IMG/VR virus record: IMGVR_UViG_3300023720_000218
Strand: one strand, 5' to 3'
DNA length: 64,000 nt
Origin: a virus
The position numbers were made by a program, and so were the translations under genes. This document shows, one piece after another, positions 5,044-55,449 of the stretch (position 1 is the stretch's first letter; every line of letters begins with the position of its first letter). The notes beneath the pieces are model-generated. The model searched no databases. It had not been told where the DNA came from and saw only the letters and a program-made list of their open reading frames with translations.

Positions 5044-5108
5044 ATATTCTCCCTTTATCCCCATACGCCACATCGAAGGGAGAAACAATGCGGCAACTCC
5101 AACTATTG

Positions 5109-5181
5109 TTGCGGAGATTCGACTCGAACGAATGACCTTTGGGCTATGATCCCAACGAGCTACCAGCTGCTCCACTCCGCG
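5109..5181 (-). tRNA. initiator tRNA-fMet (anticodon CAT)
   Basis: RC gives CGCGGAG TG GAGC AGCTGGTA GCTC G TTGGG ATCATAG CCCAA AGGTC ATTCG TTCGAGT CGAAT CTCCGCA A. The C1·A72 mismatch and the three consecutive G-C pairs closing the anticodon stem are bacterial initiator hallmarks. Confidence 0.7.
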
Positions 5182-13552: not shown

Positions 13553-13775
13553 CGGACATTCACTTTTGTAATTTATCATTGGAAAAGCCTTAAAAACATC
13601 CATTATTGGCTCCAAAAAAGAAAAAAAAATAAAAATCTTGACCGGGATTGAAACATGCTTGGTGTCTTGGGTAGCCGGGGGGGGGTGCCCTCCCTGCTTT
13701 CATTATCCAGTTGACCGGCAAAGAAGGAGAAAAGCCGCGCTTTGCCTTGATTCTCTTTATATTATACCTATAATA

Positions 13776-29074: not shown

Positions 29075-29689
29075 ATGAGAACAGTAACAGTTGAAGTGCC
29101 CGAAGGACACATGGTAAAAATCGTGAAAGAAGAAAGTATGCAACCTACTCAAAAAGTTACGGGGGGGGGTAAATTTGAATTTGAGGGTGAGACATTCATC
29201 CCCGGTGACGTAATTATCAATCCGAATCGCGGAGGGGGCAGCATGATGATTCTCTCTGAAATTAGAGAAGAAAGGCCACTCTCTTTTTTACCGGCAATTA
29301 AAGTACCTTTCGGCCTTGTCGCCTATGTTCCTTCCAATGATGAAGGTGACAGAGTTTTTGTAAGACTCACACCCGAAGCTGGTATCGGAGGCATGAAGGG
29401 ATTCCGTAAAGCTACGGAAGAGGAAAAGGCAAAGATGCTTGCCGCCATGAAGGAAGAAAAACATTACTCCTTCAATTTTGAGAAGTTACAGCCTGAATAT
29501 ATCCCGACTGTCGGCGATGTTGTTATTGTATGGGATGATAATAGCAAAGAAAATGCGGTAGTCGGTGTTATGAATGAAATGGATAAAACAGTCAGGCCAT
29601 ACAAGATAAATGATGGTACTTGGTATGGGAACTGCGACAAGTTCGTTTCAGAAGAACAATATAAAAATTTGATTGATGGGAAAGAGTAA
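29075..29689 (+). CDS. hypothetical protein containing an in-frame G9 tract (codons ACG GGG GGG GGT)
   Basis: 204-aa ORF. The 9-G run at 29161-29169 encodes TGGGK. Confidence 0.4.
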   Translation: MRTVTVEVPEGHMVKIVKEESMQPTQKVTGGGKFEFEGETFIPGDVIINPNRGGGSMMILSEIREERPLSFLPAIKVPFGLVAYVPSNDEGDRVFVRLTPEAGIGGMKGFRKATEEEKAKMLAAMKEEKHYSFNFEKLQPEYIPTVGDVVIVWDDNSKENAVVGVMNEMDKTVRPYKINDGTWYGNCDKFVSEEQYKNLIDGKE

Positions 29690-29745
29690 ATCTAAATCGG
29701 GGGGGGCGAGAAATTACACTCCCCTTCTCACAGCTCGCCCAAAGG

Positions 29746-29975
29746 GAATGAGCTACCAAGAATATCGTGAACGCAGAGCCTATCAGAACGCATGGTTGAA
29801 AGAGCGACTGAAAGGCTTTATTTGTTATGTATCGTCTGAACTGGTTGTATATGACAAAATAACGGGATTACCCCGATTATTCAATCATCGTACAGATGAT
29901 ATACACAAAGCAAACATAAGGACTAACCCACAGCCATTTGTCGGTTCTGCCCGATATGGCTTAAAACCTTTATGA
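29746..29975 (+). CDS. hypothetical small protein
   Basis: Start placed at MSYQEY. The ORF track begins at 29673, which is inside the preceding gene and would include the G8 tract at 29699-29706. Confidence 0.25.
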
Positions 29976-33156: not shown

Positions 33157-33612
33157 ATGAAACGAAGGATCATAGGTATAGATGTTGGCAAAAACGGTGG
33201 AATTGTAGTGTACGACACCGAGAATAACAGATTATTGGAGTGTATCAAAATGCCACCAACTCCCAAAGACTTATTAGATTTTCTCTCTATATACAAAGAA
33301 AATAGCGTTTGTTATTTGGAACGAGTGAATGGCATGACCGGACAAAGTGCTTCTGCCTCTTTTGTTTTTGGAGAAGGTTACGGACAGCTGACTATGGGAT
33401 TGATAGCTTGTGGGATTCCGACAGTAACAGTATCTCCACAAACTTGGCAAAAAACTTTAGGATTACGAAATACAGACAAATTGGGTAAGACAGAATGGAA
33501 AAACATCTTAAAGAAGAAAGCCCAACAGCTGTTTCCGTATGCAAAAGTTACATTGGCAACTTCGGATGCCTTACTAATATGTGAATATGGTAGAATTAAA
33601 GAAAATGAATAA
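33157..33612 (+). CDS. RuvC-like Holliday-junction resolvase
   Basis: N-terminal IIGIDVGKNGGIVV (the RuvC/YqgF motif with the first catalytic Asp). 151 aa. Confidence 0.55.
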   Translation: MKRRIIGIDVGKNGGIVVYDTENNRLLECIKMPPTPKDLLDFLSIYKENSVCYLERVNGMTGQSASASFVFGEGYGQLTMGLIACGIPTVTVSPQTWQKTLGLRNTDKLGKTEWKNILKKKAQQLFPYAKVTLATSDALLICEYGRIKENE

Positions 33613-33769
33613 TGGAAAATTTAAAAAAATGCAGCAAATGTGGCCGAGAACTTCCGGTCAGTGAGTTTTGGAGAAATGCTTCAACCGAAGATGGATTGCA
33701 GACATACTGCAAAGAGTGTGGTAATATTTATGCCAAAAACCGTAAGAAAACTCCGGGGGGGGTAATTTG
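33611..33769 (+). CDS. zinc-ribbon protein truncated at a G8 tract (+1 G would extend it to about 92 aa, ending near 33887)
   Basis: MENLKKCSKCGRELPVSEFWRNASTEDGLQTYCKECGNIYAKNRKKTPGGVI*. The G run at 33754-33761 precedes TAATTTGA; with 9 G's the frame stays open to 33887. Confidence 0.4.
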
Positions 33770-33886
33770 AAGAAAATATATTCCAATTCTGAATTGGCAA
33801 GATTTTCTCCACGGGAACTTATCACAGAATTGAAAGCACGTGGATATACCGGAGAATTGAAATACACTCAAACAATATCATTATAA

Positions 33887-34423
33887 ATGGAAAAGTTACG
33901 TCTATTGGTTACAACCAAATGTCCGAACAAATGTCCTATGTGTTGCAACAACTCATGGGATTTTTCAAAATTACCAGTTGTTGAGCACTTTAATTACAAA
34001 GAGATCATGATAACTGGTGGAGAACCACTTTTGTTTCCTGAAAAACTGTCAAATTTGGCCGAAAGTATCAGAACCGTTCAGAAATTGGCCTATGGCAATA
34101 AAGGAAAATTATTTCTATATACGGCACTGGCTGATATGCTTCCCAATTATATCAGATATTTCGATGGAGTTGTTTACACTCCACATTCTGCTAATGATGT
34201 TCATAGTTTATTAAAGGCCAATAATTTTTTGTTGGACTACAAAGATGAACTTATGGAAAGTAAATCTCTTCGACTCAATCTTTTTCCTGATATTAAAAAG
34301 CATATTCCTGACAACACAGACCTTTCGTTATGGAAAGTAAAAGATATGCAATGGATCAAAGATTGCCCGGTTCCGACTGATGAAGAGTTCAAAAGAGTAG
34401 CTGAATTATGGGAGGTGGAATGA
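33887..34423 (+). CDS. radical-SAM activating enzyme (NrdG-like; QueE-like not excluded)
   Basis: CX3CX2C cluster (TTKCPNKCPMCC) and a glycine-rich SAM motif (ITGGEPLLFPE). 178 aa, as for anaerobic RNR activases. Confidence 0.5.
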   Translation: MEKLRLLVTTKCPNKCPMCCNNSWDFSKLPVVEHFNYKEIMITGGEPLLFPEKLSNLAESIRTVQKLAYGNKGKLFLYTALADMLPNYIRYFDGVVYTPHSANDVHSLLKANNFLLDYKDELMESKSLRLNLFPDIKKHIPDNTDLSLWKVKDMQWIKDCPVPTDEEFKRVAELWEVE

Positions 34424-35508
34424 TGAAAGATGTAATTACCCCCCCCCAACATCTCTATCCTTATTGCTGGTCTTTAGAAGATGCTGTTTTTACTAAAGAT
34501 AAAGGAAAGGTGTTTTCTTGTTTTGCATGTGGCGGTGGCTCTACTATGGGTTACAAAATAGCTGGTTACGATGTTATTGGCTGTAATGAGATTGATCCAC
34601 GAATGATGAAATGCTATGAAACAAACCATCATCCCCAGTATAGTTATTTGGAAGATATTCGTGATTTTGTGAGAAGGAAAAATCTTCCCGAAGAATTGTA
34701 CAAATTAGATATATTGGACGGATCACCACCTTGCAGTACATTTAGCATGTCGGGATTACGTGAAGATGCGTGGGGTAAAGAAAAGAAATTCAAGGAAGGT
34801 CAAAAGACACAAGTTTTAGACACGCTCTTTTTTGATTTTATTGCACTTGCCAAACGCTTAAAACCTAAAGTCGTTATTGCTGAAAATGTGAAAGGTCTTC
34901 TTTTAGGGAATGCGATTGATTATGTCAGACGTATATACAAAGACTTTGAGGAAGCTGGTTATTATTGTCAGCATTTTCTTCTTGATGCTTCTAAAATGGG
35001 AGTACCTCAAAAAAGAGAACGTGTATTCTTTATATGTATCAGGCATGATTTGGGAGTCCATTTTCTAAAAGTTTCAGACCTCTTCAATGTTGAACCATAC
35101 ATCGACATGGAATTTAATGAATCGGAAATATATTATGGGGAATATGCGGATTACAAGGGAAAGCCTATTGGCGTAAAAATGAGAAAGTTATTTGAGCAGA
35201 GAGTGGCAGGAGATATTGCTTTGGCAGAGGCCTATAAGAAACAAACTGGAAAACGAGGCTTTTTTAATCAACAATATCTATATGAGAACAAAGTAAGCTA
35301 CACCCTAACAACTCATGCAGACTCAATTATTCCTTTTAAGCAGCCTATATATTTATCACGGTCAGAAGTATGTAATATATCCACATTTCCACAAGATTAT
35401 CATTTCCTCAACCAATCCCCACATTATATCTGTGGAATGAGTGTACCACCCGTTATGATGGCACAAGTAGCCTCACGAGTATGGAAATATTGGTTATCTA
35501 AATTATAA
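34408..35508 (+). CDS. DNA (cytosine-5)-methyltransferase with a C9 tract 10 codons into the ORF
   Basis: Motif I FSCFACGGGSTMGY, motif IV GSPPCSTFS and motif VI ENVKGL. The poly-C at 34439-34447 encodes TPPQ. The likely start is the ATG at 34420, preceded by GGGAGGTGG. Confidence 0.75.
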   Translation: MGGGMMKDVITPPQHLYPYCWSLEDAVFTKDKGKVFSCFACGGGSTMGYKIAGYDVIGCNEIDPRMMKCYETNHHPQYSYLEDIRDFVRRKNLPEELYKLDILDGSPPCSTFSMSGLREDAWGKEKKFKEGQKTQVLDTLFFDFIALAKRLKPKVVIAENVKGLLLGNAIDYVRRIYKDFEEAGYYCQHFLLDASKMGVPQKRERVFFICIRHDLGVHFLKVSDLFNVEPYIDMEFNESEIYYGEYADYKGKPIGVKMRKLFEQRVAGDIALAEAYKKQTGKRGFFNQQYLYENKVSYTLTTHADSIIPFKQPIYLSRSEVCNISTFPQDYHFLNQSPHYICGMSVPPVMMAQVASRVWKYWLSKL

Positions 35509-35933: not shown

Positions 35934-36483
35934 AGAAGCTGTTCTCAACACTCCTAACCTACCACTCTCCGTTATAAGAAAAGAAATCACATTGGCTGGC
36001 GCAAGAGCCATACTGGTAATTGCGATTAACGAGCTTGTGTCTTTTTTCAATGTTGGAAAAACGATGAATGATGTTCAAGTGGCACTTACCGCTGATCTAA
36101 TAATAGACAGATTCTATTATCTCAAATTGGAGGAAATCAAATTATGTTTCCGTAATGCTATGGCTTCCGGTAAGATTTACGATAGACTGGACGGTAATAT
36201 CATTCTCGGCTGGTTAAATGAATACGATGCACAGCGTGATGAAATTGTTTCTTCTCTTTCAATTAATGAAGCCCATGAACAAAATAATAACAGCACTGGA
36301 ATGTTCTACGGAGAATATATCAAACATCTAACTGAAAGATCGGAAAATGGAGATGAAGAGGCCAAAGAATTATTGGAATCCCATCAATCATTCATACAAA
36401 GGATGAAATCAAATGATAAAGAAGCCGCTTTCAAAAAATGGAAAGAAGAATATTATGGAAGAACTAAGAGACAAACTACTTGA
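35800..36483 (+). CDS. hypothetical protein (start uncertain; overlaps the preceding ORF)
   Basis: 227-aa ORF. Confidence 0.3.
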   Translation: MILTSMGNNLIQVNSNLPATEKKALKDLLTLQAEYYKGLHVSSIKEAVLNTPNLPLSVIRKEITLAGARAILVIAINELVSFFNVGKTMNDVQVALTADLIIDRFYYLKLEEIKLCFRNAMASGKIYDRLDGNIILGWLNEYDAQRDEIVSSLSINEAHEQNNNSTGMFYGEYIKHLTERSENGDEEAKELLESHQSFIQRMKSNDKEAAFKKWKEEYYGRTKRQTT

Positions 36484-37165
36484 CTGGGCGAAACAATTTG
36501 AAACACCTGATTTTATAAAAGATGATCCTATATTTTTTCCACATAAGTACAATGATAAAAAGGACATAGAAATCAGTGCTTTTCTTACTTCATGGATAGC
36601 TTTCGGGAATCGCAAACTGATAATGCAGCAAGCAGAAATTTTGGATAATCTAATGGGTAATTCTCCTTATGCCTTCATTATGAACAAAGTATGGGAACAA
36701 TACAAAGAAAATACAAATACCTTCTACCGTATGTTCACCTACCATGACTTCTTCTGCATTTGCCAGCGGTTGTACAACATATATCAGGAATGGGATGATT
36801 TGGAAGTATTTTATGAGGGTTACAACAATGTTATCCGTGAAATACAAACAGATTTTGGTGGCGTAAAAGGTATTCCAAAATTGGAGCGTGATTCTCCATG
36901 CAAGCGTATTTGTCTGTTTCTACGGTGGGTAGTACGAAAATCGCCGGTGGATTTAGGTATTTGGAATATTATTCACCCGACAGAATTATACATACCATTG
37001 GATGCACATGTTGCAAAAATGGCACACCAGCTTGGGATAACAACACGCAAAACAGAGGACTGGAAAATGGTTCAACAAGTAACCAATTACATGAAAACAA
37101 TTTTCCCGGATGATCCGTGCCGGGGAGATTTTGCATTATTCGGATATAGTATTAACAATAAATAA
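36413..37165 (+). CDS. hypothetical protein
   Basis: 250-aa ORF. No motif recognised with confidence. Confidence 0.35.
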   Translation: MIKKPLSKNGKKNIMEELRDKLLDWAKQFETPDFIKDDPIFFPHKYNDKKDIEISAFLTSWIAFGNRKLIMQQAEILDNLMGNSPYAFIMNKVWEQYKENTNTFYRMFTYHDFFCICQRLYNIYQEWDDLEVFYEGYNNVIREIQTDFGGVKGIPKLERDSPCKRICLFLRWVVRKSPVDLGIWNIIHPTELYIPLDAHVAKMAHQLGITTRKTEDWKMVQQVTNYMKTIFPDDPCRGDFALFGYSINNK

Positions 37166-37992: not shown

Positions 37993-38409
37993 ATGGTTAA
38001 TATGAAAATCCTTGACCTGCCATTAAAAGCAAAATGGTATGAAATGATCGAATCCGGAAATAAGAAAGAAGAATACAGAGAGATCAAGAAATACTGGATC
38101 GGAAGATTAGCAAAATGTGGAGGTCGCAATTCCTATGAAAAGACAGGTTTCTATTGTAAGAAAGGTATTTGTTTTTCTTGTATTACACGTGGAAACGGCT
38201 TTCACCCCAAAGAATACACTCATGTTCGCTTCCGTTTTGGCTACACCAAACGGACAATGCTTTTTGAACTTGAATCTATAACCATCGGAGTTGGTAACAC
38301 CAATTGGGGAGCACCGGATAACGAATGTGTATTTATACTTAAACTGGGAAAATGTATCAAAAAAAATGAAAGTAAGGACTCAACAGAATTTCAACCGAAA
38401 AACTCGTGA
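37993..38409 (+). CDS. hypothetical protein (possible ASCH/PUA-like fold)
   Basis: 138 aa. The N-terminal pattern LPLKAKWYEMIESGNKKEEYREI is reminiscent of ASCH domains; this is weak. Confidence 0.25.
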   Translation: MVNMKILDLPLKAKWYEMIESGNKKEEYREIKKYWIGRLAKCGGRNSYEKTGFYCKKGICFSCITRGNGFHPKEYTHVRFRFGYTKRTMLFELESITIGVGNTNWGAPDNECVFILKLGKCIKKNESKDSTEFQPKNS

Positions 38410-38622
38410 AACAGTATTCGGTATCAGCATCATGCCTGACGGTGGCAGAAGATATTGTAAATACCCAATAGGCCACCAAGAATACAAAGACTATACCCAA
38501 GCACACCAAGCTATGAAAGATGTACAAAAGATATTGGATAATGGAGGCCGATTAGTGTATTCTCCCAAAGGTAGTGCCGGGATTAATAAAAATGAATATG
38601 TAAAAATTGAAATGACATAAAA

Positions 38623-39472
38623 ATGAAAATATTAGTAAGTTTTTCAGGTGGTAAGGATTCACAAGCATGTTTGATCCAAGCCTTCAAACAATATGGGGGG
38701 GGATTTAATCGCTGTGTTTTGTGACACCGGCTGGGAACACCCTGACACATATAAACATGTGAATGATGTTTGTCTGCAAATGGGAGTAAGACTTATAACT
38801 CTCAAATCAAAATACGATTTTGTGTCTTTGGCAGTTCACAAGAAAAGATTTCCTTCCACGAATGCACGGTTTTGTACCAGTGAACTAAAAATGAAGCCAA
38901 TGATTGATTATGTACTTTCTTTGAAAGAAAGCTGCATTATTATACAAGGTATCAGAGCCGGAGAAAGTACAGCACGTGCGGCAATGGAAGAGGAATGTAT
39001 GTACTTCAAATCGTATTTTCAACCTAATAAGAAAGGAAGAACTGAAAACTACCGAAGTAAGGATGTCAAAGAATGGTGTTCCCAATTTGACGCTTCTGTT
39101 CTAAGACCGATCTTCAAATGGAGTGCACAGCAAGTTATAGATTGCATACTGGATGCAGGGCAGAAACCGAATCCATTGTATTATCGTGGATTCTCACGTG
39201 TTGGATGTTTCCCGTGTATCATGTGTCGGCATAAAGAAATTGAACTTATAGCCAAAAATGATCCTGAAATGTGTCAACGTCTGATTCAAGCAGAGAAAAA
39301 CGTGGGACATTCCTTCTTTCCTCCATCATACATACCTCAAAGATTCTGTAAAAACAAACAATATCCTTATGTAGAGGAAGTTTTGGAGTACGTTAAAGAA
39401 CATACCCCTGATATGTTCGAGCCGGAAAGTGGATATGCCTGCATGAGCCTGTTTCATGGACTATGCGAATAA
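38623..39472 (+). CDS. PAPS-reductase-family / PP-loop ATP pyrophosphatase-like protein, split by a frameshift at a G8 tract
   Basis: The ATG at 38623 gives MKILVSFSGGKDSQACLIQAFKQYGGG… (SGGKDS PP-loop) and stops at 38724. The tract-downstream frame (38693..39472; its N-terminal part up to 38724 overlaps the first frame) continues …DLIAVFCDTGWEHPDTY…. Removing one G from the run at 38695-38702 fuses them into a protein of about 282 aa. Confidence 0.55.
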
Positions 39473-39620
39473 ATAAAAATATTATGAAGAAAATACTACT
39501 TATCTTTACACTCCTTGTTTTGTTAACTGGATGTACTGCACCAAGAGTTTATAAAAAGAACCGCTTCACAAAACAGTTTCAAGAAGCAGATTCAATGTTT
39601 ACTCAAAAACATTTATTAGA

Positions 39621-40073
39621 ATGAAGACATTAGACGAAAAGGCTGCCGAATATGCAGCAGGGGTTGTAGCTGAGTTCCCTGAACTTGCAAGCTACAAAGG
39701 AACTATTGAAACCATTTACGGACAAGGGGCAATGGAATGTGAATTACTTGGAGAAGAAACGGGAACCTTTGGGCAAGCACTTGAATCTCTCAAACGAGGG
39801 CATCTCGTTACTCGTAAAGGATGGAACGGTAAGGGTATGTTCATATTCATGCGTCCTGAAGATTGTTTATCAACGGAAAAGGTTGTTAATCATGTTAAAT
39901 CACTTCCCGAATCATTCAAAAAATGGATAGCCAACAATTATGGAGATTCGGAAATTGATAAAATCAAATTTACTGCATACTTATGTATGAAAGCTGCCGA
40001 TGGCACCGTTGTAAATGGTTGGCTTGCATCACAGACAGATATGCTTGCTAACGATTGGATGATAGTTAAATAA
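39621..40073 (+). CDS. DUF2829-like protein (possible Tad2-type anti-Thoeris sponge homologue)
   Basis: …FGQALESLKRGHLVTRKGWNGKGMFIFM… and a C-terminal …NGWLASQTDMLANDWMIV resemble the DUF2829 signature (G-W-N-G-K-G…D-W). Recalled from memory. Confidence 0.35.
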   Translation: MKTLDEKAAEYAAGVVAEFPELASYKGTIETIYGQGAMECELLGEETGTFGQALESLKRGHLVTRKGWNGKGMFIFMRPEDCLSTEKVVNHVKSLPESFKKWIANNYGDSEIDKIKFTAYLCMKAADGTVVNGWLASQTDMLANDWMIVK

Positions 40074-41669: not shown

Positions 41670-42587
41670 ATGAATATTGGAATTTTAGCCGTTGATAGCA
41701 ATTTCCCCAATTTAGCACTTATGAAGATCAGTGCTTACCACAAAGCAAGAGGCGATCAAGTGGAATGGTATAATCCACTATGTAAATATGATAAAGTATA
41801 TGCAGCTAAAGTTTTCACTTTCACACCCGACTATAACTATTATATCAATGCTAACCAAATAGAAAAAGGTGGTACTGGATATGATATTGAAAAAGTTCTT
41901 CCAATTGAGGTTGATCGTCTTCAACCTGATTACTCGATCTACAATATTGACTCCAATTTGTCCTATGGGTTTCTGACACGTGGGTGTCCCAATCGGTGTA
42001 AATGGTGGGTTGTTCCTAAAAAAGAAGGAAAAATCTCACCTTATATGGATATTGAGGAAATAACAGCCGGACGGAAGAAAGCTATCCTTATGGATAATAA
42101 TATACTGGCCTCAAACTATGGCTTGCAGCAAATAGAGAAAATCATCAAACTGGGTATCAAAGTGGATTTTAATCAAGGACTGGATGCTCGTTTAATCACG
42201 GATGAAATCGCTCGGCTACTTGCAAAAGTAAAATGGATTAAACGTATTCGCTTTGGATGCGATACACCGGGACAGATTGCAGAAGTTGAACGTGCTTCCG
42301 CTTTAATAGACAAGTATGGATATAAAGGGGAATATTTCTTGTATTGCATCCTTATGGACTTTGAAGAATCGTTTGCGCGCGTCAACTACTGGAAATCTAA
42401 AAGCCGCCGTTTTCTTCCACATTGTCAACCCTTTCGTGATCTGAACAATCCACACCAAATTATTCCACAGTGGCAGAAAGACATGGCACATTGGGCTGAT
42501 AGGAAGGAAATATACATGAGTTGCGACTTCAAAGACTTTTCACCAAGAAAAGGTTTTTTATGTAAGGAATACTTTAAAATATTGTGA
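41670..42587 (+). CDS. hypothetical protein
   Basis: 305-aa ORF containing a TRGCPNRC segment. No firm family was assigned. Confidence 0.35.
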   Translation: MNIGILAVDSNFPNLALMKISAYHKARGDQVEWYNPLCKYDKVYAAKVFTFTPDYNYYINANQIEKGGTGYDIEKVLPIEVDRLQPDYSIYNIDSNLSYGFLTRGCPNRCKWWVVPKKEGKISPYMDIEEITAGRKKAILMDNNILASNYGLQQIEKIIKLGIKVDFNQGLDARLITDEIARLLAKVKWIKRIRFGCDTPGQIAEVERASALIDKYGYKGEYFLYCILMDFEESFARVNYWKSKSRRFLPHCQPFRDLNNPHQIIPQWQKDMAHWADRKEIYMSCDFKDFSPRKGFLCKEYFKIL

Positions 42588-42821: not shown

Positions 42822-43311
42822 ATGAATACATCTTTTGAACGATCTGCAAACGCTTCCGATGAATGGTACACACCACGAGAAATCATTGAAGCATTAGGTG
42901 AATTTGACCTTGATCCATGTGCTCCCATGCACCCTCTTTGGCCTACCGCAAAAATCATGTACAACAAGCAGGACAATGGTCTTATACAAAATTGGGGGGC
43001 GAATTTGGCTTAACCCTCCGTACTCCAAACCGCTTATATGGCAGTTTGTAGAGAAATTGGCAGAACACGGCAACGGTATAGCACTACTTTTTAACCGGTG
43101 TGACAGCAATAAGTTTCAAGACATCATCTTCACGAAAGCAACCGGTATGATGTTTTTGAGGAATCGAATAAAATTCTTCCGTCCCGATGGAACACGTGGG
43201 GACAGCCCCGGTTGCGGTAGTGTTCTTATTGCATTTGGCCGGGAAAATGCCGAAATTTTAAGGAACTGCTCTTTACAAGGCAAATATGTTGAACTTAACA
43301 ATGATAAATGA
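42822..43311 (+). CDS. phage Dam-family DNA N6-adenine methyltransferase, split by a frameshift at a G6 tract
   Basis: Frame A (42822..43013) has SDEWYTPREIIEALGEFDLDPCAP. Frame B (to 43311) has IWLNPPYSKP. One G fewer at 42994-42999 gives the contiguous …LIQNWGRIWLNPPYS…. Confidence 0.55.
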
Positions 43312-52069: not shown

Positions 52070-53613
52070 TTATTCTTCAAAATAATAAGCACTCTTCCCG
52101 TCACCTAACGAACGCCGCTTGACAATCACATTTTCCACTGGAAAAATCTTCTGACCGTTATTCTCCGCTTCGCGAGCCTGATCCAACACATCTTTCAGAT
52201 TGTAACAGTTCGTTATGAATTTGCTACGTTGTCCGTTCTGTTCAAAAAGAACACAATATCTACCTTCACCTTGCTTTGTCTTCACATTCGTTTCAAAGTC
52301 CACCACTGTTATAGGGACATTGAGAATATCCATCAATCTTGTCTCTTTTACATCGAAGAACTTCTTTCCGTCCTTTGTTCTACCACTCTGTTTGATACCT
52401 TTATCTGCAAAACTCATATCATTATTTGTTATTGTTCTCCATAAATTCTTACAATCTCCCCACTTACACCAGCCCCAGTATGAAGCTCGTATCTCGCGGT
52501 TACGTTTCCGGCTTTTTATTCGTTTCACCTTTCGGGCAAAGTTCTTTTTCATATTTTTACGCATCCGAACATTATCTTTCGTGAAGCAATAGCCCAAAAA
52601 GTTAATCCTTCTTCCTCTTACTACGTTTTCGCTTTCTATGCTTTTTGTTCCCATTTTTTGTTTCTGTTCCTATCGGAGCAATACAACTGTTTGCTTTAAC
52701 TACCAACCCAACTTTTGCACTTTCCCGTTCATACGCACGAATAAGAAACAACGCTTCGGCCTTAGAACGAGCCAGCATAACATTATCATCGCAATATCTA
52801 TGCAGGCATTTGACACGATATTTCTCCTTCATTGTATGATCTATCCGGCTTGCCGCAAAATTCCCGATAGGTTGGCTTGTAAATGCTCCAATCGGAACAC
52901 CTCTTCTTCCGTTCAACTTCATTCTCCAATACGTCAACTAACTCTGTTCCGCTGTCATACGATAAAACAGCTATCTCGATCAATTTAATAAATCGTTCAT
53001 CTTTGAATTTCCTTCTCAATGCAGCAACAATAAGCTCATGAAGAATACTTTGATAGAACTTTTTGAAATCAGTCTTTACGAACCATTTGTATTCCGGGTA
53101 CCGGTGAAGAAAACGTTTCATTCTCCTTACTCCAAAATGTAATCCCTTTCCCTTGATACACGCACTTGTATCATAAATCAAATTTCTATAAACATCTTCT
53201 TCAATCACCCTCATAATTGCATGGTGCAATATACGCCACGGGAAATATTTCTGTTTGACAATATCTCGAACCTTTCCTGCATCACTTTTTACTCTCATTA
53301 CGCTATAATCCGGTGCCGGAAAATCCAATGTCAGGATCATCAACTGCAAAGCTCGGAGGTCTTCTTCCGGGTGTAGATTATGCCGCCTGATAAAGCGGTT
53401 TTTCTTAACCTTCCCATCTTGTGCTTCTTTGTCCGCTTCACGTAAATTATTTATCTCTGCTATACGTTCAAGAATATACCCGGCTCTTTTAGATTTCTTT
53501 CCACCGTTTGCTTCTATCCGTTTATTGTCAGCCTCTATCCTTTCCGCTATAATTCTATCAATTTCATTATGCGATAGACTCTTCCAATCAATATCACTTC
53601 TTCCAATATTCAC
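52070..53613 (-). CDS. DGR-type reverse transcriptase, reading frame interrupted twice in this sequence (three ORF pieces)
   Basis: Piece 1 (53613-52798) has RT motif 2 (FVKTDFKKFYQSI). Piece 2 (52937-52602) has the DGR-specific GVPIGAFTSQPIGNFAAS (I-G-x-x-x-S-Q in place of QGxxxSP) and YCDD. Piece 3 (52654-52070) has INFLGYCF (thumb). The second break sits at an A6 run (T6 at 52654-52659 on the plus strand); one A fewer restores …IAPIGTETKMGTKSIESENVVRGRRINFLGY…. Confidence 0.7.
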
Positions 53614-53898
53614 TGCTGCTTTGTTTTAAAATTTACACCATACTTCCAATTTTGTCTTGTTCAGACTATTTTAATTATTCCGATAACTGCAAGCTGTTTT
53701 TACTTGCTTGAATAATTCGCCCGGAGCTTTCGAGAACCAACCTACTAACACCGCTTGTTGCCTTTCGCAAATTGGGCAACCTTTCCGCATTCTTGATTTT
53801 CTGACATCGTAACCAATTGATTACTACGTTGCAACGATATAAATCCTGCAAGGTCATGGCTCGGAGAACTCGCAGATTACTCTACGATAAATAAGTAT

Positions 53899-54006
53899 GG
53901 CGAGAGCCGATATTCGCATTCGAGTTCGACCAATCGTTATTCGAGTTCGCATAAGCGAGGCCGCAATTCGCACCGTTATTCGCATTACCGCCCCAAAGAA
54001 CCAGCT
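53899..54006 (-). repeat. DGR template repeat (TR)
   Basis: Read on the minus strand, it carries 12 AAY (Asn) codons: …GGC GGT AAT GCG AAT AAC GGT GCG AAT TGC … AAC TCG AAT AAC GAT TGG TCG AAC TCG AAT GCG AAT ATC GGC TCT CGC CAT AC. It is non-coding and lies between the target gene and the RT. Confidence 0.75.
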
Positions 54007-54129
54007 CTTGTTCCCCTCTGCCAACCGTCCACGCCTTTCGGCTTTCGTCCCGTTATCCGTTGCCGTAAAACGAGAAGGTGGACGGATTTTAATTAATTGA
54101 AATTCAAAGAACTAATATTTCAAAATCTA

Positions 54130-55449
54130 TTATGCAGCCATCAAAGATGCACCGCTAACAAATGTTAAATTCCCAAAATACGCAAGGCGAGAGCCGATAG
54201 TCGCAGTCGAGTGCGACCAATCGTTATGCGAGCGCGCATAAGCGAGGCCGCAATACGCACCGTCATACGCATCACCGCCCCAAAGAACCAGCTGCCCAGT
54301 AGTGTTTGCCCATGAATAATCAGCCCAATAAGAAGTGCTGTTTCCACCAATCTTTTTCGGGAAAATATCAAAATGCTCCCCAAGAATTATTTCCTGCACT
54401 TGACCGGAAACTGTCTGCCGGGTAGCTTGTCTGTATTCACCATTTGGATGCGCAGCTAATTCAGCAGTAGTCGGTAAACGGTTTCCTTTGTAAATGAAAA
54501 TTTCCGTTCCACTTTGAGCACTATTGTTGGAACTACCGCAAAATACTCCTTGCAGAAATTCCCACTGCCACCCATAAGGATCTTCTATACCCATCATGTT
54601 CACCCGTGAACAATCCACTCCAGTATTACTTCCATTCACCACAGAAATAGCTATTTTACCCCAATTGTCACCGAGACTCTTTGTTGCGCCAGTTTGCAAT
54701 GCTGCCGCAGCAGCCCACAAGTCTTTACTGGAGCTACCACCCACACCATAACCAAGTTTGGCTTGAATATTGGTATCTCCGTACTGGGACAGCCCCAACA
54801 TCATAATAAGCTTTCTCTGATCGTAATCGGTCAGTCCCCATTCCTTACCGTTCACTTGTGCAGCATTCCAAAATGCGTTGATTGTCTTGCTGCCTGCCGG
54901 TGCAACTCCTGAACGTGAAACAAGTGCGCTACCTGACATGGAGCCTTTGTATGCACCGATACAGTTATACATTCCACCATTTGCCCCACCAATAAACTCA
55001 CCGCCAATAGGTAGCATCGAGAGCCATAAGACTGGTACACCACTCACACTGTCAGTCTGTACACGATAATACAAACGTGGCCCTATCCACATCACATGCC
55101 CTTTGGTTTCATCCACCGCAGTACCATCAGCAAACACCGCACTATTGGTAGGGGACATTTTAGCAGCCCTTCCATCATTCGTTACGAGATAACGGCCACA
55201 ATACAACTTGTATTCTGTCCATGCGGCTGTATTACCTATCACACCATAGTTCGTGCTACTTTGGGTTGATTGTTTGATTGGAATCCCCCAAGCCACCTGC
55301 CTCAACATTTGTTCGTCACCATTATTAATAGCATTCATGAAGTTTTCCACGGTAATGCGTCTGACACTACCACCAACTTCCACCAATACTGTATTGGAAC
55401 GCAGAATGGAGGTCACCAATGTTTCATTTCCTAATCCTTTAGTTGCCAT
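54130..55449 (-). CDS. DGR target: tail-fibre / receptor-binding-like protein with a C-terminal variable region
   Basis: 439-aa ORF in the tail block. The C-terminus …LVLWGGDAYDGAYCGLAYARSHNDWSHSTATIGSRLAYFGNLTFVSGASLMAA is encoded by VR1. Confidence 0.7.
   Translation of the reverse strand: MATKGLGNETLVTSILRSNTVLVEVGGSVRRITVENFMNAINNGDEQMLRQVAWGIPIKQSTQSSTNYGVIGNTAAWTEYKLYCGRYLVTNDGRAAKMSPTNSAVFADGTAVDETKGHVMWIGPRLYYRVQTDSVSGVPVLWLSMLPIGGEFIGGANGGMYNCIGAYKGSMSGSALVSRSGVAPAGSKTINAFWNAAQVNGKEWGLTDYDQRKLIMMLGLSQYGDTNIQAKLGYGVGGSSSKDLWAAAAALQTGATKSLGDNWGKIAISVVNGSNTGVDCSRVNMMGIEDPYGWQWEFLQGVFCGSSNNSAQSGTEIFIYKGNRLPTTAELAAHPNGEYRQATRQTVSGQVQEIILGEHFDIFPKKIGGNSTSYWADYSWANTTGQLVLWGGDAYDGAYCGLAYARSHNDWSHSTATIGSRLAYFGNLTFVSGASLMAA
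54182..54293 (-). repeat. DGR variable repeat 1 (VR1)
   Basis: It matches the TR over about 110 nt with 10 mismatches, all at positions that are A on the TR coding (minus) strand. It ends 17 codons before the stop with the GC-rich GGCTCTCGCCTTGCG (IMH-like). Confidence 0.75.

Follow-up and report, generated by a model that had tools for sequence, protein, structure and literature searches.

A length-variable G run in a PAPS-reductase-like gene of a LoVEphage-like phage: a probable contingency locus

A PP-loop gene divided by eight Gs

The IMG/VR virus record IMGVR_UViG_3300023720_000218 comprises 64,000 nucleotides, and this whole stretch, referred to below as the window, contains a gene of the PP-loop, or phosphoadenosine phosphosulfate (PAPS)-reductase-like, kind that is interrupted close to its 5' end by a homopolymer of Gs (coordinates in Table 1). 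The first of the two open reading frames (ORFs) into which the gene is divided reads ATG AAA ATA ... TCA GGT GGT AAG GAT TCA ... TAT and then enters the run—GGGGGGGG, exactly 8 bases, at 38695–38702—and its translation from 38623 to 38724 is MKILVSFSGGKDSQACLIQAFKQYGGGFNRCVL* (33 amino acids, aa). The second, of 259 aa, lies in the +1 frame, begins MGGDLIAVFCDTGWEH... / MGGDLIAVFCDTGWEHPDTY..., and takes the first base of the run as the G of its ATG. Shorten the run by one G, to G7, and a single uninterrupted frame of 282 aa results; lengthen it by two, to G10, and the frame is again uninterrupted, with 283 aa. The first-pass annotation of the window had described just this—a PP-loop gene split by G8 and mended by one G fewer, with its downstream part starting in the +1 frame inside the run—and the ORF and repair translations agree with it, the ATG overlapping the run at 38693. 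It counted 27 residues in the N-terminal fragment; the fragment, with its SGGKDS motif, is there, but roughly 24–26 residues precede the change of frame.

Repaired, the protein matches PF01507 (PAPS_reduct) with 87.2 bits against a cut-off of 22.5 (E=1.8e-24, residues 3–199) and phrog_424, 'phosphoadenosine phosphosulfate reductase', with E=4e-56, and the PP-loop/PAPS-reductase-like identity proposed from the letters alone holds. The ATP-binding loop, SGGKDS, occupies residues 7–12, after the first beta-strand. A search of a protein catalogue brought up 2,676 relatives at E <=1e-10, many of them 60–75% identical, 283–290 aa long and aligned over 100% of the repaired protein. In an alignment of 20 homologues (60–87% identity), SGGKDS is present in every full-length member, and four cysteines are invariant: Cys84 (RFCTSELK), Cys195 and Cys198 (GCFPC), and Cys281 (HGLCE). 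From the motifs, these would correspond to the Fe-S ligands of APS reductase and DndC and to a C-terminal catalytic cysteine.

In an AlphaFold model (pLDDT 77), a strand at residues 2–6 is followed by helix alpha1 (11–27) and strand beta2 (28–34), and the run falls at the alpha1/beta2 junction. The residues that follow a conserved 'YG' here differ from one homologue to the next: GT.., GA.., GV.., GGG... Since the run is in a loop that varies in this way, the gain or loss of whole glycines at the modeled junction should be tolerated.

In-frame lengths are G9 and G12 where two As follow the run (283 and 284 aa), and G7 and G10 where a single A follows, as it does in the window; other lengths yield a peptide of 28–34 aa. 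The window, with G8 and then one A, is best read as an OFF state, and the natural in-frame state of its lineage is more likely to be G10 (GGG GGG GGG GAT) than G7. Could the 259-aa product of the internal ATG be a real protein, nonetheless? We reject it as such, because it is without the beta1, PP-loop and alpha1 that every homologue retains; the earlier suggestion that the split might be tolerated if homologues could dispense with the N-terminus founders on the same fact, for all those of 60–75% identity keep it.

Variation and constraint among related copies

Related copies of the gene were collected by exact-pattern scans with the 26 bases upstream of the run, which returned 22 IMG/VR and 69 metagenome loci. 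The 87 copies parsed, written as the run plus its trailing As, comprise G7AA (2), G8A (2), G8AA (19), G8AAT (2), G9AA (23), G9AAA (1), G10AA (29), G11AA (6) and G12AA (3). Twenty-eight of them (32%) are in frame. The G8A state belongs solely to the window and to L033, an independent assembly 99.6% identical to it; L036, a contig of 245x coverage, has the window's gene haplotype but G9AA, in frame. The first-pass annotation had proposed that a uniform G7 would betray a simple assembly error. G7 occurs in only 2 of the 87 copies, where it is out of frame with the AA of these relatives, and the run is G8, G9 or G10 in isolates and in genomes of high coverage. The public protein catalogue, too, contains shortened products, of 260, 261, 268 and 269 aa, that correspond to the G8, G10, G11 and G13 states, and one of its clusters, with 2,287 members, consists of OFF-state products, judging from the members examined.

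The variation persists when attention is confined to the 53 copies whose 283-aa ORF is otherwise intact, and which fall into 27 haplotypes once the run is normalized. Among these the run still spans G7–G12, with 15 of 53 in frame. One haplotype, identical over 849 nt in eight contigs, includes G8, G9, G10, G11 and G12, and four further haplotypes include three lengths each. Identical 849-nt haplotypes with up to five lengths mean that the run changes much faster than point substitutions accumulate. Other runs on the same contigs behave differently: those of 5–6 bases have the modal length in 95–100% of cases, and an A8 run 330 bp upstream in 74%, whereas the commonest length of the G run accounts for 33%. 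Contigs at 7–245x coverage, three complete virome genomes, a reference genome and two isolates have G7 to G10 among them.

The coding sequence on both sides of the run is under strong purifying selection. Across the 27 haplotypes the ratio of nonsynonymous to synonymous polymorphism (pN/pS) is 0.063 overall and 0.064 after the run, with polymorphic sites distributed 12/13/55 over the three codon positions, and pN is zero for the 24 codons that precede the run. Such an N-terminal fragment would not have stayed free of amino-acid change in a dead gene, and we conclude that this one is probably not dead. As for the origin of the run, DNA of three distant homologues was available; two have no run, and in the third, from a Proteiniphilum prophage, the site is occupied by G7, in frame, suggesting that the long run is a derived feature of the LoVEphage lineage (the group of phages described below), acquired at a predisposed site.

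Some copies are altered in other ways. Of 71 full-length copies, 58 are otherwise intact and 13 carry further indels, mostly in assemblies at ~0.5–2x coverage. One or two variants have an interrupted run (L078 and L079; the run amounts to three codons, and the haplotypes number 27). In L031 (QWCB01021446.1), G4 at the run is followed by sequence from ~150 nt further into the gene, an internal deletion one end of which is at the run. A second allele, in which everything after '...ELIAKN' is replaced, occurs in L006 (MW660583), L011, L035, L038, L039, L051, L065 and L090; its proteins (P0030, P0080 and P0087) are without the conserved C-terminal HGLCE tail, and several of the products read on into a small, downstream, lipoprotein-like ORF (MKKILLI...C; window 39487–39624).

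Five of 98 contigs terminate in or beside the run, and another, L046 (ERZ779624 NODE-18424), passes ~70 nt beyond the start of the PAPS-reductase-like gene into the sequence that follows the run of a Dam-like methyltransferase gene (…GGGGGGCGAATTTGGCTTAACCCTCCGTAC…). The contig may be a true recombinant, or the assembler may have joined two G runs whose right flanks are similar. Contig ends at the run, and a chimera between runs, are what an assembler should produce when run length is heterogeneous within a sample.

The run as a probable contingency locus, and rival readings

The run is over-long and lies in an ORF, its length varies between near-identical genomes, and the ORF that it shifts in and out of frame is under selection: the marks of a contingency locus. 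We consider it probable, accordingly, that the run is hypermutable and that it acts as such a locus, within the functional gene of a PP-loop enzyme in a temperate Bacteroides/Phocaeicola phage. Strand slippage in replication would add and remove Gs, so that the 255 codons after the run would at some lengths share the reading frame of the 24 codons ahead of it, for beta1, the ATP-binding loop SGGKDS and alpha1, and at other lengths lose it. In-frame lengths would give rise to the full enzyme; out-of-frame lengths would give rise to a short peptide and, at best, to an N-terminally truncated protein without the nucleotide-binding loop. Together with runs in two methyltransferase genes and three other early genes, this would make each burst, or each population of lysogens, a mixture of modification states, and the mixture could serve as bet-hedging against hosts whose defenses either require or attack a given modification. 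Rapid switching inside a single population, the absence of active enzyme from OFF copies, and an adaptive value of switching are likewise steps that we infer.

Several observations weigh against this. The fraction of copies in frame is what chance predicts, one-third—28 of 87 overall and 15 of 53 among intact copies—and it is close to chance also in prophage contigs (>90 kb; 5 of 11) and in a high-quality set (3 of 16); the 5 of 11 for integrated prophages is not clearly different from other contexts. Nothing directly indicates, then, that the ON or OFF state made a difference when the copies were sampled. Many of the metagenome contigs have very low coverage and other indels, and some individual lengths may be one base out. 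In ~8 of 71 copies (the MW660583 type) other sequence replaces the 3' third of the gene, implying that the gene is dispensable in some lineages. And a partner NTPase of the Dnd, Ssp or Brx type is not annotated in the phage, as far as the annotation of PV4-TP1 goes.

The rival explanation that fares best, although we think it unlikely, is that the run is read through at the level of RNA. If RNA polymerase stutters, or the ribosome slips, on G8–G12, every length yields some product, the gene is expressed constitutively at reduced level, and DNA length becomes near-neutral. This would reconcile the pN/pS of 0.06 with an in-frame fraction equal to chance, and homopolymers of eight or more are indeed sites of RNA polymerase slippage, mainly as runs of A or T. 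Transcriptional slippage in bacteria is documented mainly on A/T runs rather than on G runs, however, and the OFF states here are of both signs: G8AA is one base short; G10AA and G8A are one long. No directional programmed ribosomal frameshift can serve all of these. Such a site was considered in its own right, and we discarded it: run length is not fixed, shifts of opposite sign are needed, and no frameshift-stimulating RNA structure was found in the 98 nt after the run, which fold no better than shuffled sequences (z = -0.49). Rescue by polymerase or ribosome, and switching in DNA, could coexist.

Somewhat less probable still is decay, in which the gene is dispensable and its accessory function has been lost at a run that is no more than a hot spot of mutation. 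Around 70% of copies are out of frame, after all, some lineages have lost the 3' third, L031 has its internal deletion, and GenBank annotators call only truncated coding sequences (CDSs). Decay does not explain a pN/pS of 0.063 or an N-terminal fragment without amino-acid change, however, nor the 58 of 71 copies that are otherwise intact—most of the remainder stemming from contigs at ~0.5–2x—nor the occurrence of in-frame and out-of-frame copies within the same haplotypes. An artefact of sequencing or assembly, in which the true run is uniform and in frame and the lengths are miscalls, is very improbable: homopolymers are error-prone, many contigs combine low coverage with other indels, and the A8 control is non-modal in 26% of copies, but G7–G12 are spanned without a dominant value, unlike the controls, contigs at 13–245x, three complete virome genomes, the reference genome and two isolates differ mutually, and the window's G8A is reproduced in the independent assembly L033. 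The low pN/pS, the unchanged N-terminus, and the varying lengths in identical copies speak together for neither an assembly error nor a decaying pseudogene, and it is the contingency locus that we prefer.

The phage, its other runs, and known systems

The region is 97–99% identical to Phocaeicola phage PV4-TP1, Bacteroides phage BI-TP1 and four genomes named 'Bacteroides phage LoVEphage', and the window represents a LoVEphage-like temperate phage of Bacteroides/Phocaeicola. LoVEphages are temperate, occur in ~8% of human gut viromes, and have been induced from B. thetaiotaomicron, P. dorei and P. vulgatus (PMC12629997). All six of these GenBank relatives are out of frame at the run, with G8AA or G10AA, and in all six the PAPS-reductase CDS is annotated from downstream of the SGGKDS stretch.

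In this genome, long G or C runs form a class of their own. By an analytic estimate, in which G/C runs extend with a probability of ~0.15–0.17 per base in a window of 39% G+C, 64 kb should contain ~0.1 runs of eight or more. Six occur (G9 at 13677, G9 at 29161, G8 at 29699, G8 at 33755, C9 at 34439 and G8 at 38695), together with none of seven and three of six. GGG is the rarest glycine codon in the phage (15.6%). Counting a shorter run in the Dam-like methyltransferase gene, five runs besides the one discussed so far vary among relatives (Table 1), all within the first ~60 codons of their genes. G/C runs of variable length thus number six or more in the genome, and DNA-modification genes contain three of these if the PAPS-reductase-like gene is included. 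The remark in the first-pass annotation that this is 'another modification gene under putative tract control' is supported by these observations: G7–G12 in 87 copies, and variation in the runs of two methyltransferases.

Table 1. Features of the window, with the state of each run and its lengths among relatives
Feature	Position	Strand	State in window	Lengths among relatives
Whole PAPS-reductase-like (PP-loop) gene	38623–39472	+	Out of frame; one ORF at G7/G10	
Upstream ORF, 33 aa: beta1, PP-loop SGGKDS, alpha1, then 7 out-of-frame codons and stop	38623–38724	+		
G8 homopolymer, alpha1/beta2 junction, codons 25–27; probable hypermutable run	38695–38702	+		G7–G12 (87 copies)
Downstream ORF, 259 aa: remaining PAPS_reduct domain and Cys-rich C-terminus (GCFPC..., ...HGLCE)	38693–39472	+		
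C9 run, 11 codons into C5-cytosine DNA methyltransferase gene (34408–35508; PF00145 E=1.5e-44)	34439–34447	+	In frame	C7–C10 (11 relatives)
G6 run in Dam-like N6-adenine methyltransferase gene, just before NPPY motif (G8 version: PF05869 E=3.4e-15)	42994–42999	+	Out of frame; in frame at G5/G8	G6–G10, mode G8 (24 relatives)
G8 run splitting gene (33612–33884) of 91-aa zinc-ribbon protein (phrog_1035/phrog_5558, E ~1e-10 to 1e-11)	33755–33762	+	Out of frame; in frame at G9	G6–G10 (15 relatives)
G9 run ~30 codons into 204-aa gene of unknown function (29075–29689)	29161–29169	+	In frame	G8, G9, G10 (3 relatives)
G8 run 8 codons into 99-aa gene of unknown function (ATG ~29677 to 29975)	29699–29706	+	In frame	G8 or G9 (5 relatives)
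G9 run in apparently non-coding stretch	13677–13685	+		Covered by no relative among fetched loci
A8 run near end of ASCH-domain ORF (37993–38409)	38359–38366			A6–A10; A8 60/81, A7 11/81
Diversity-generating retroelement	52798–55449			
Reverse-transcriptase ORF of the retroelement	52798–53613	-		
Repeat pair of the retroelement, 118 nt, 89% identity	53889–54006 / 54176–54293			
Mtd-like tail protein gene	54130–55449	-		

LoVEphages, which are among the commonest temperate phages of the human gut and have an unusually wide host range, might possess what could be termed a 'phasome': at least six runs that switch independently and toggle two methyltransferases, the SspD/BrxP-like enzyme discussed here and three small early proteins. 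This is a speculative extension, and we hold it more doubtful than not. If it is correct, each burst is a combinatorial library of up to ~64 epigenetic or anti-defense states that, along with a receptor-binding retroelement, could let the phage move between species of Bacteroides and Phocaeicola that differ in restriction and in modification-dependent defenses; the DNA modification made by the SspD/BrxP-like enzyme would possibly involve sulfur, or some other non-methyl group, and do without the customary partner proteins.

Other features of the genome deserve mention. The A8 run that served above as a control could be one more run of the variable kind, or a further site of slippage or frameshifting; at A7 the ORF that contains it would fuse with that at 38291–38620 to encode 208 aa. 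The retroelement—a diversity-generating retroelement (DGR)—has one copy of its repeat at the 3' end of the Mtd-like gene, and the phage combines a receptor-binding DGR with homopolymer runs in early genes. Interspersed with the methyltransferase genes of this early region, following the PV4-TP1 annotation, are two radical-SAM-type genes (41670–42587 and 33887–34423) and a TIGR02757/DUF2400 gene (36413–37165), which may be part of further nucleic-acid modification pathways. In one relative, L002 (OY731433.1), a 5S ribosomal RNA is annotated in GenBank (barrnap) inside the phage genome at 5063–5168, beyond the part it has in common with the window.

What kind of enzyme does the gene encode? Among PADLOC profiles it matches SspD (E=1.2e-22), BrxP (E=1.7e-16) and DndC (E=1.5e-7), and by this measure it seems to resemble SspD and BrxP most closely. 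The comparison with DndC, QueC and CysH that had been proposed for the fused protein put all three below cut-off, and brought out SspD and BrxP as the nearest, instead. None of the established families can be assigned, however. SspD is rejected despite its score, as no SspB- or SspC-like gene is annotated in the early region of PV4-TP1 or seen beside the homologues; BrxP is rejected because the match covers only positions 134–338 of a 779-position profile, the protein has 283 aa and a single Pfam domain, and the PV4-TP1 annotation shows no brxC, brxZ or brxL neighbors. The NCBIfam model of DndC (TIGR03183) scores 25 bits against a cut-off of 290, over residues 76–177 only. The CysH models score 49.5 against 154 bits (PRK02090) and 21.1 against 165 (TIGR00434), and the C-terminus reads ...FHGLCE, not ECGLH; the NCBIfam model of APS reductase scores 35 against 235; and QueC scores 19.1 against 22 bits with PF06508 (the N-terminal 62 residues only) and 25.5 against 378 with NCBIfam. 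Judged by these profiles, the enzyme is a member of the PAPS_reduct superfamily that is not SspD, BrxP, DndC, CysH or QueC.

Structural comparison leads to the same neighborhood. When the model is compared with the PDB by Foldseek, the best matches are CysH and APS reductases (E ~3e-9, TM 0.5–0.65 over ~198 residues, 15–19% identity), and no closer functional analogue was found there than these generic ones. The likeness to CysH and APS reductase is one of fold; the low identity, HGLCE in place of ECGLH, and a context of early phage genes rather than of sulfur metabolism set the phage protein apart. Its only solved sequence relative is PptA (PDB 21fy_C; E=4e-6), on which a literature search brought up nothing relevant.

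With SspD, BrxP and DndC (PMC12914056) the phage protein has the PAPS_reduct PP-loop domain in common; it differs in standing alone, at 283 aa, without DUF4007 and without annotated partner genes in the phage. Phosphorothioation requires a PAPS-domain protein and an NTPase (PMC12914056), and among the 78 annotated genes in the first 50 kb of PV4-TP1, a stretch that takes in the whole early region, we found no SspB/SspC, BrxC/Z/L, DndD/E or NTPase partner. Homologues are situated in early regions of phages and prophages, next to DNA methyltransferase and ASCH genes, and these neighbors, along with the resemblance to SspD and BrxP, suggest a tie to DNA modification. Our best guess is an ATP-dependent, Fe-S- or cysteine-based modification of nucleic acid, with sulfur or otherwise, related to that of SspD and BrxP. 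One review treats the function of phage PAPS-reductase homologues as open (PMC11437467); the analysis singles out a stand-alone enzyme of this kind, and its natural ON and OFF variants provide material for working out the chemistry.

If the modification genes are stochastic switches, they offer a concrete reason for the host breadth and persistence of LoVEphage-type phages, and annotations of truncated or split genes record one phase of a switch rather than the gene. Phage contingency loci, shown by experiment in Campylobacter phages and coliphages, would then extend to the dominant bacterial phylum of the gut. Bacteroidota are better known for invertible promoters, and the literature searched yielded no account of switching by repeats in Bacteroides phages. 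Two papers on LoVEphage (PMC12629997 is one) do not mention homopolymers or frameshifts, the 2021 description of LoVEphage does not mention the methyltransferases or the PAPS-reductase-like gene, and the paper on 'roving methyltransferases' of Bacteroides does not describe repeat-based switching.

The closest parallels come from other phages. Poly-G tracts act as contingency loci in Campylobacter phages, according to a later paper's account of that work (Sorensen 2021, Cell Rep 35:109214, cited in PMC12823448). Poly-G runs in phage ORFs, several of them per genome, are common ground with the present case; hypermutability, switching of frame and mixed progeny would be so too. In Campylobacter phages, which are lytic, the runs reportedly occur in receptor-binding and structural genes, and the host is said to use poly-G switching itself. 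Here, in contrast, the runs are in early and DNA-modification genes of a temperate phage of Bacteroidota, and the receptor-binding gene is diversified separately, by a DGR.

Phage T2 offers a likeness of another sort, a homopolymer inside a DNA-modification gene. Its agt gene, for an alpha-glucosyltransferase, undergoes reversible frameshifts, by which the phage switches to and fro between two restriction systems and hedges against defenses aimed at modified or at unmodified DNA; the runs are of A (~9 A), mutants arise at frequencies of ~1e-4 to 1e-3, the wild type is ON, and T4 has A runs, too (Gomez, Barrick & Waters 2025, bioRxiv, PMC12633550). The present runs differ in being of G or C, 8–12 long, and strongly over-represented; most of the genomes sampled are OFF, and the case is known from sequences. 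The phasevarions of Haemophilus, Neisseria and Helicobacter also come to mind: repeats near the 5' ends of methyltransferase genes turn these on and off stochastically, with effects on the regulation of host genes. Those are chromosomal restriction–modification genes, whereas these are orphan modification genes carried by a phage. Homopolymer contingency loci were already known, then, from Campylobacter phages and from T2 and T4, and the LoVEphage locus adds to them a probable case from a phage of Bacteroides.

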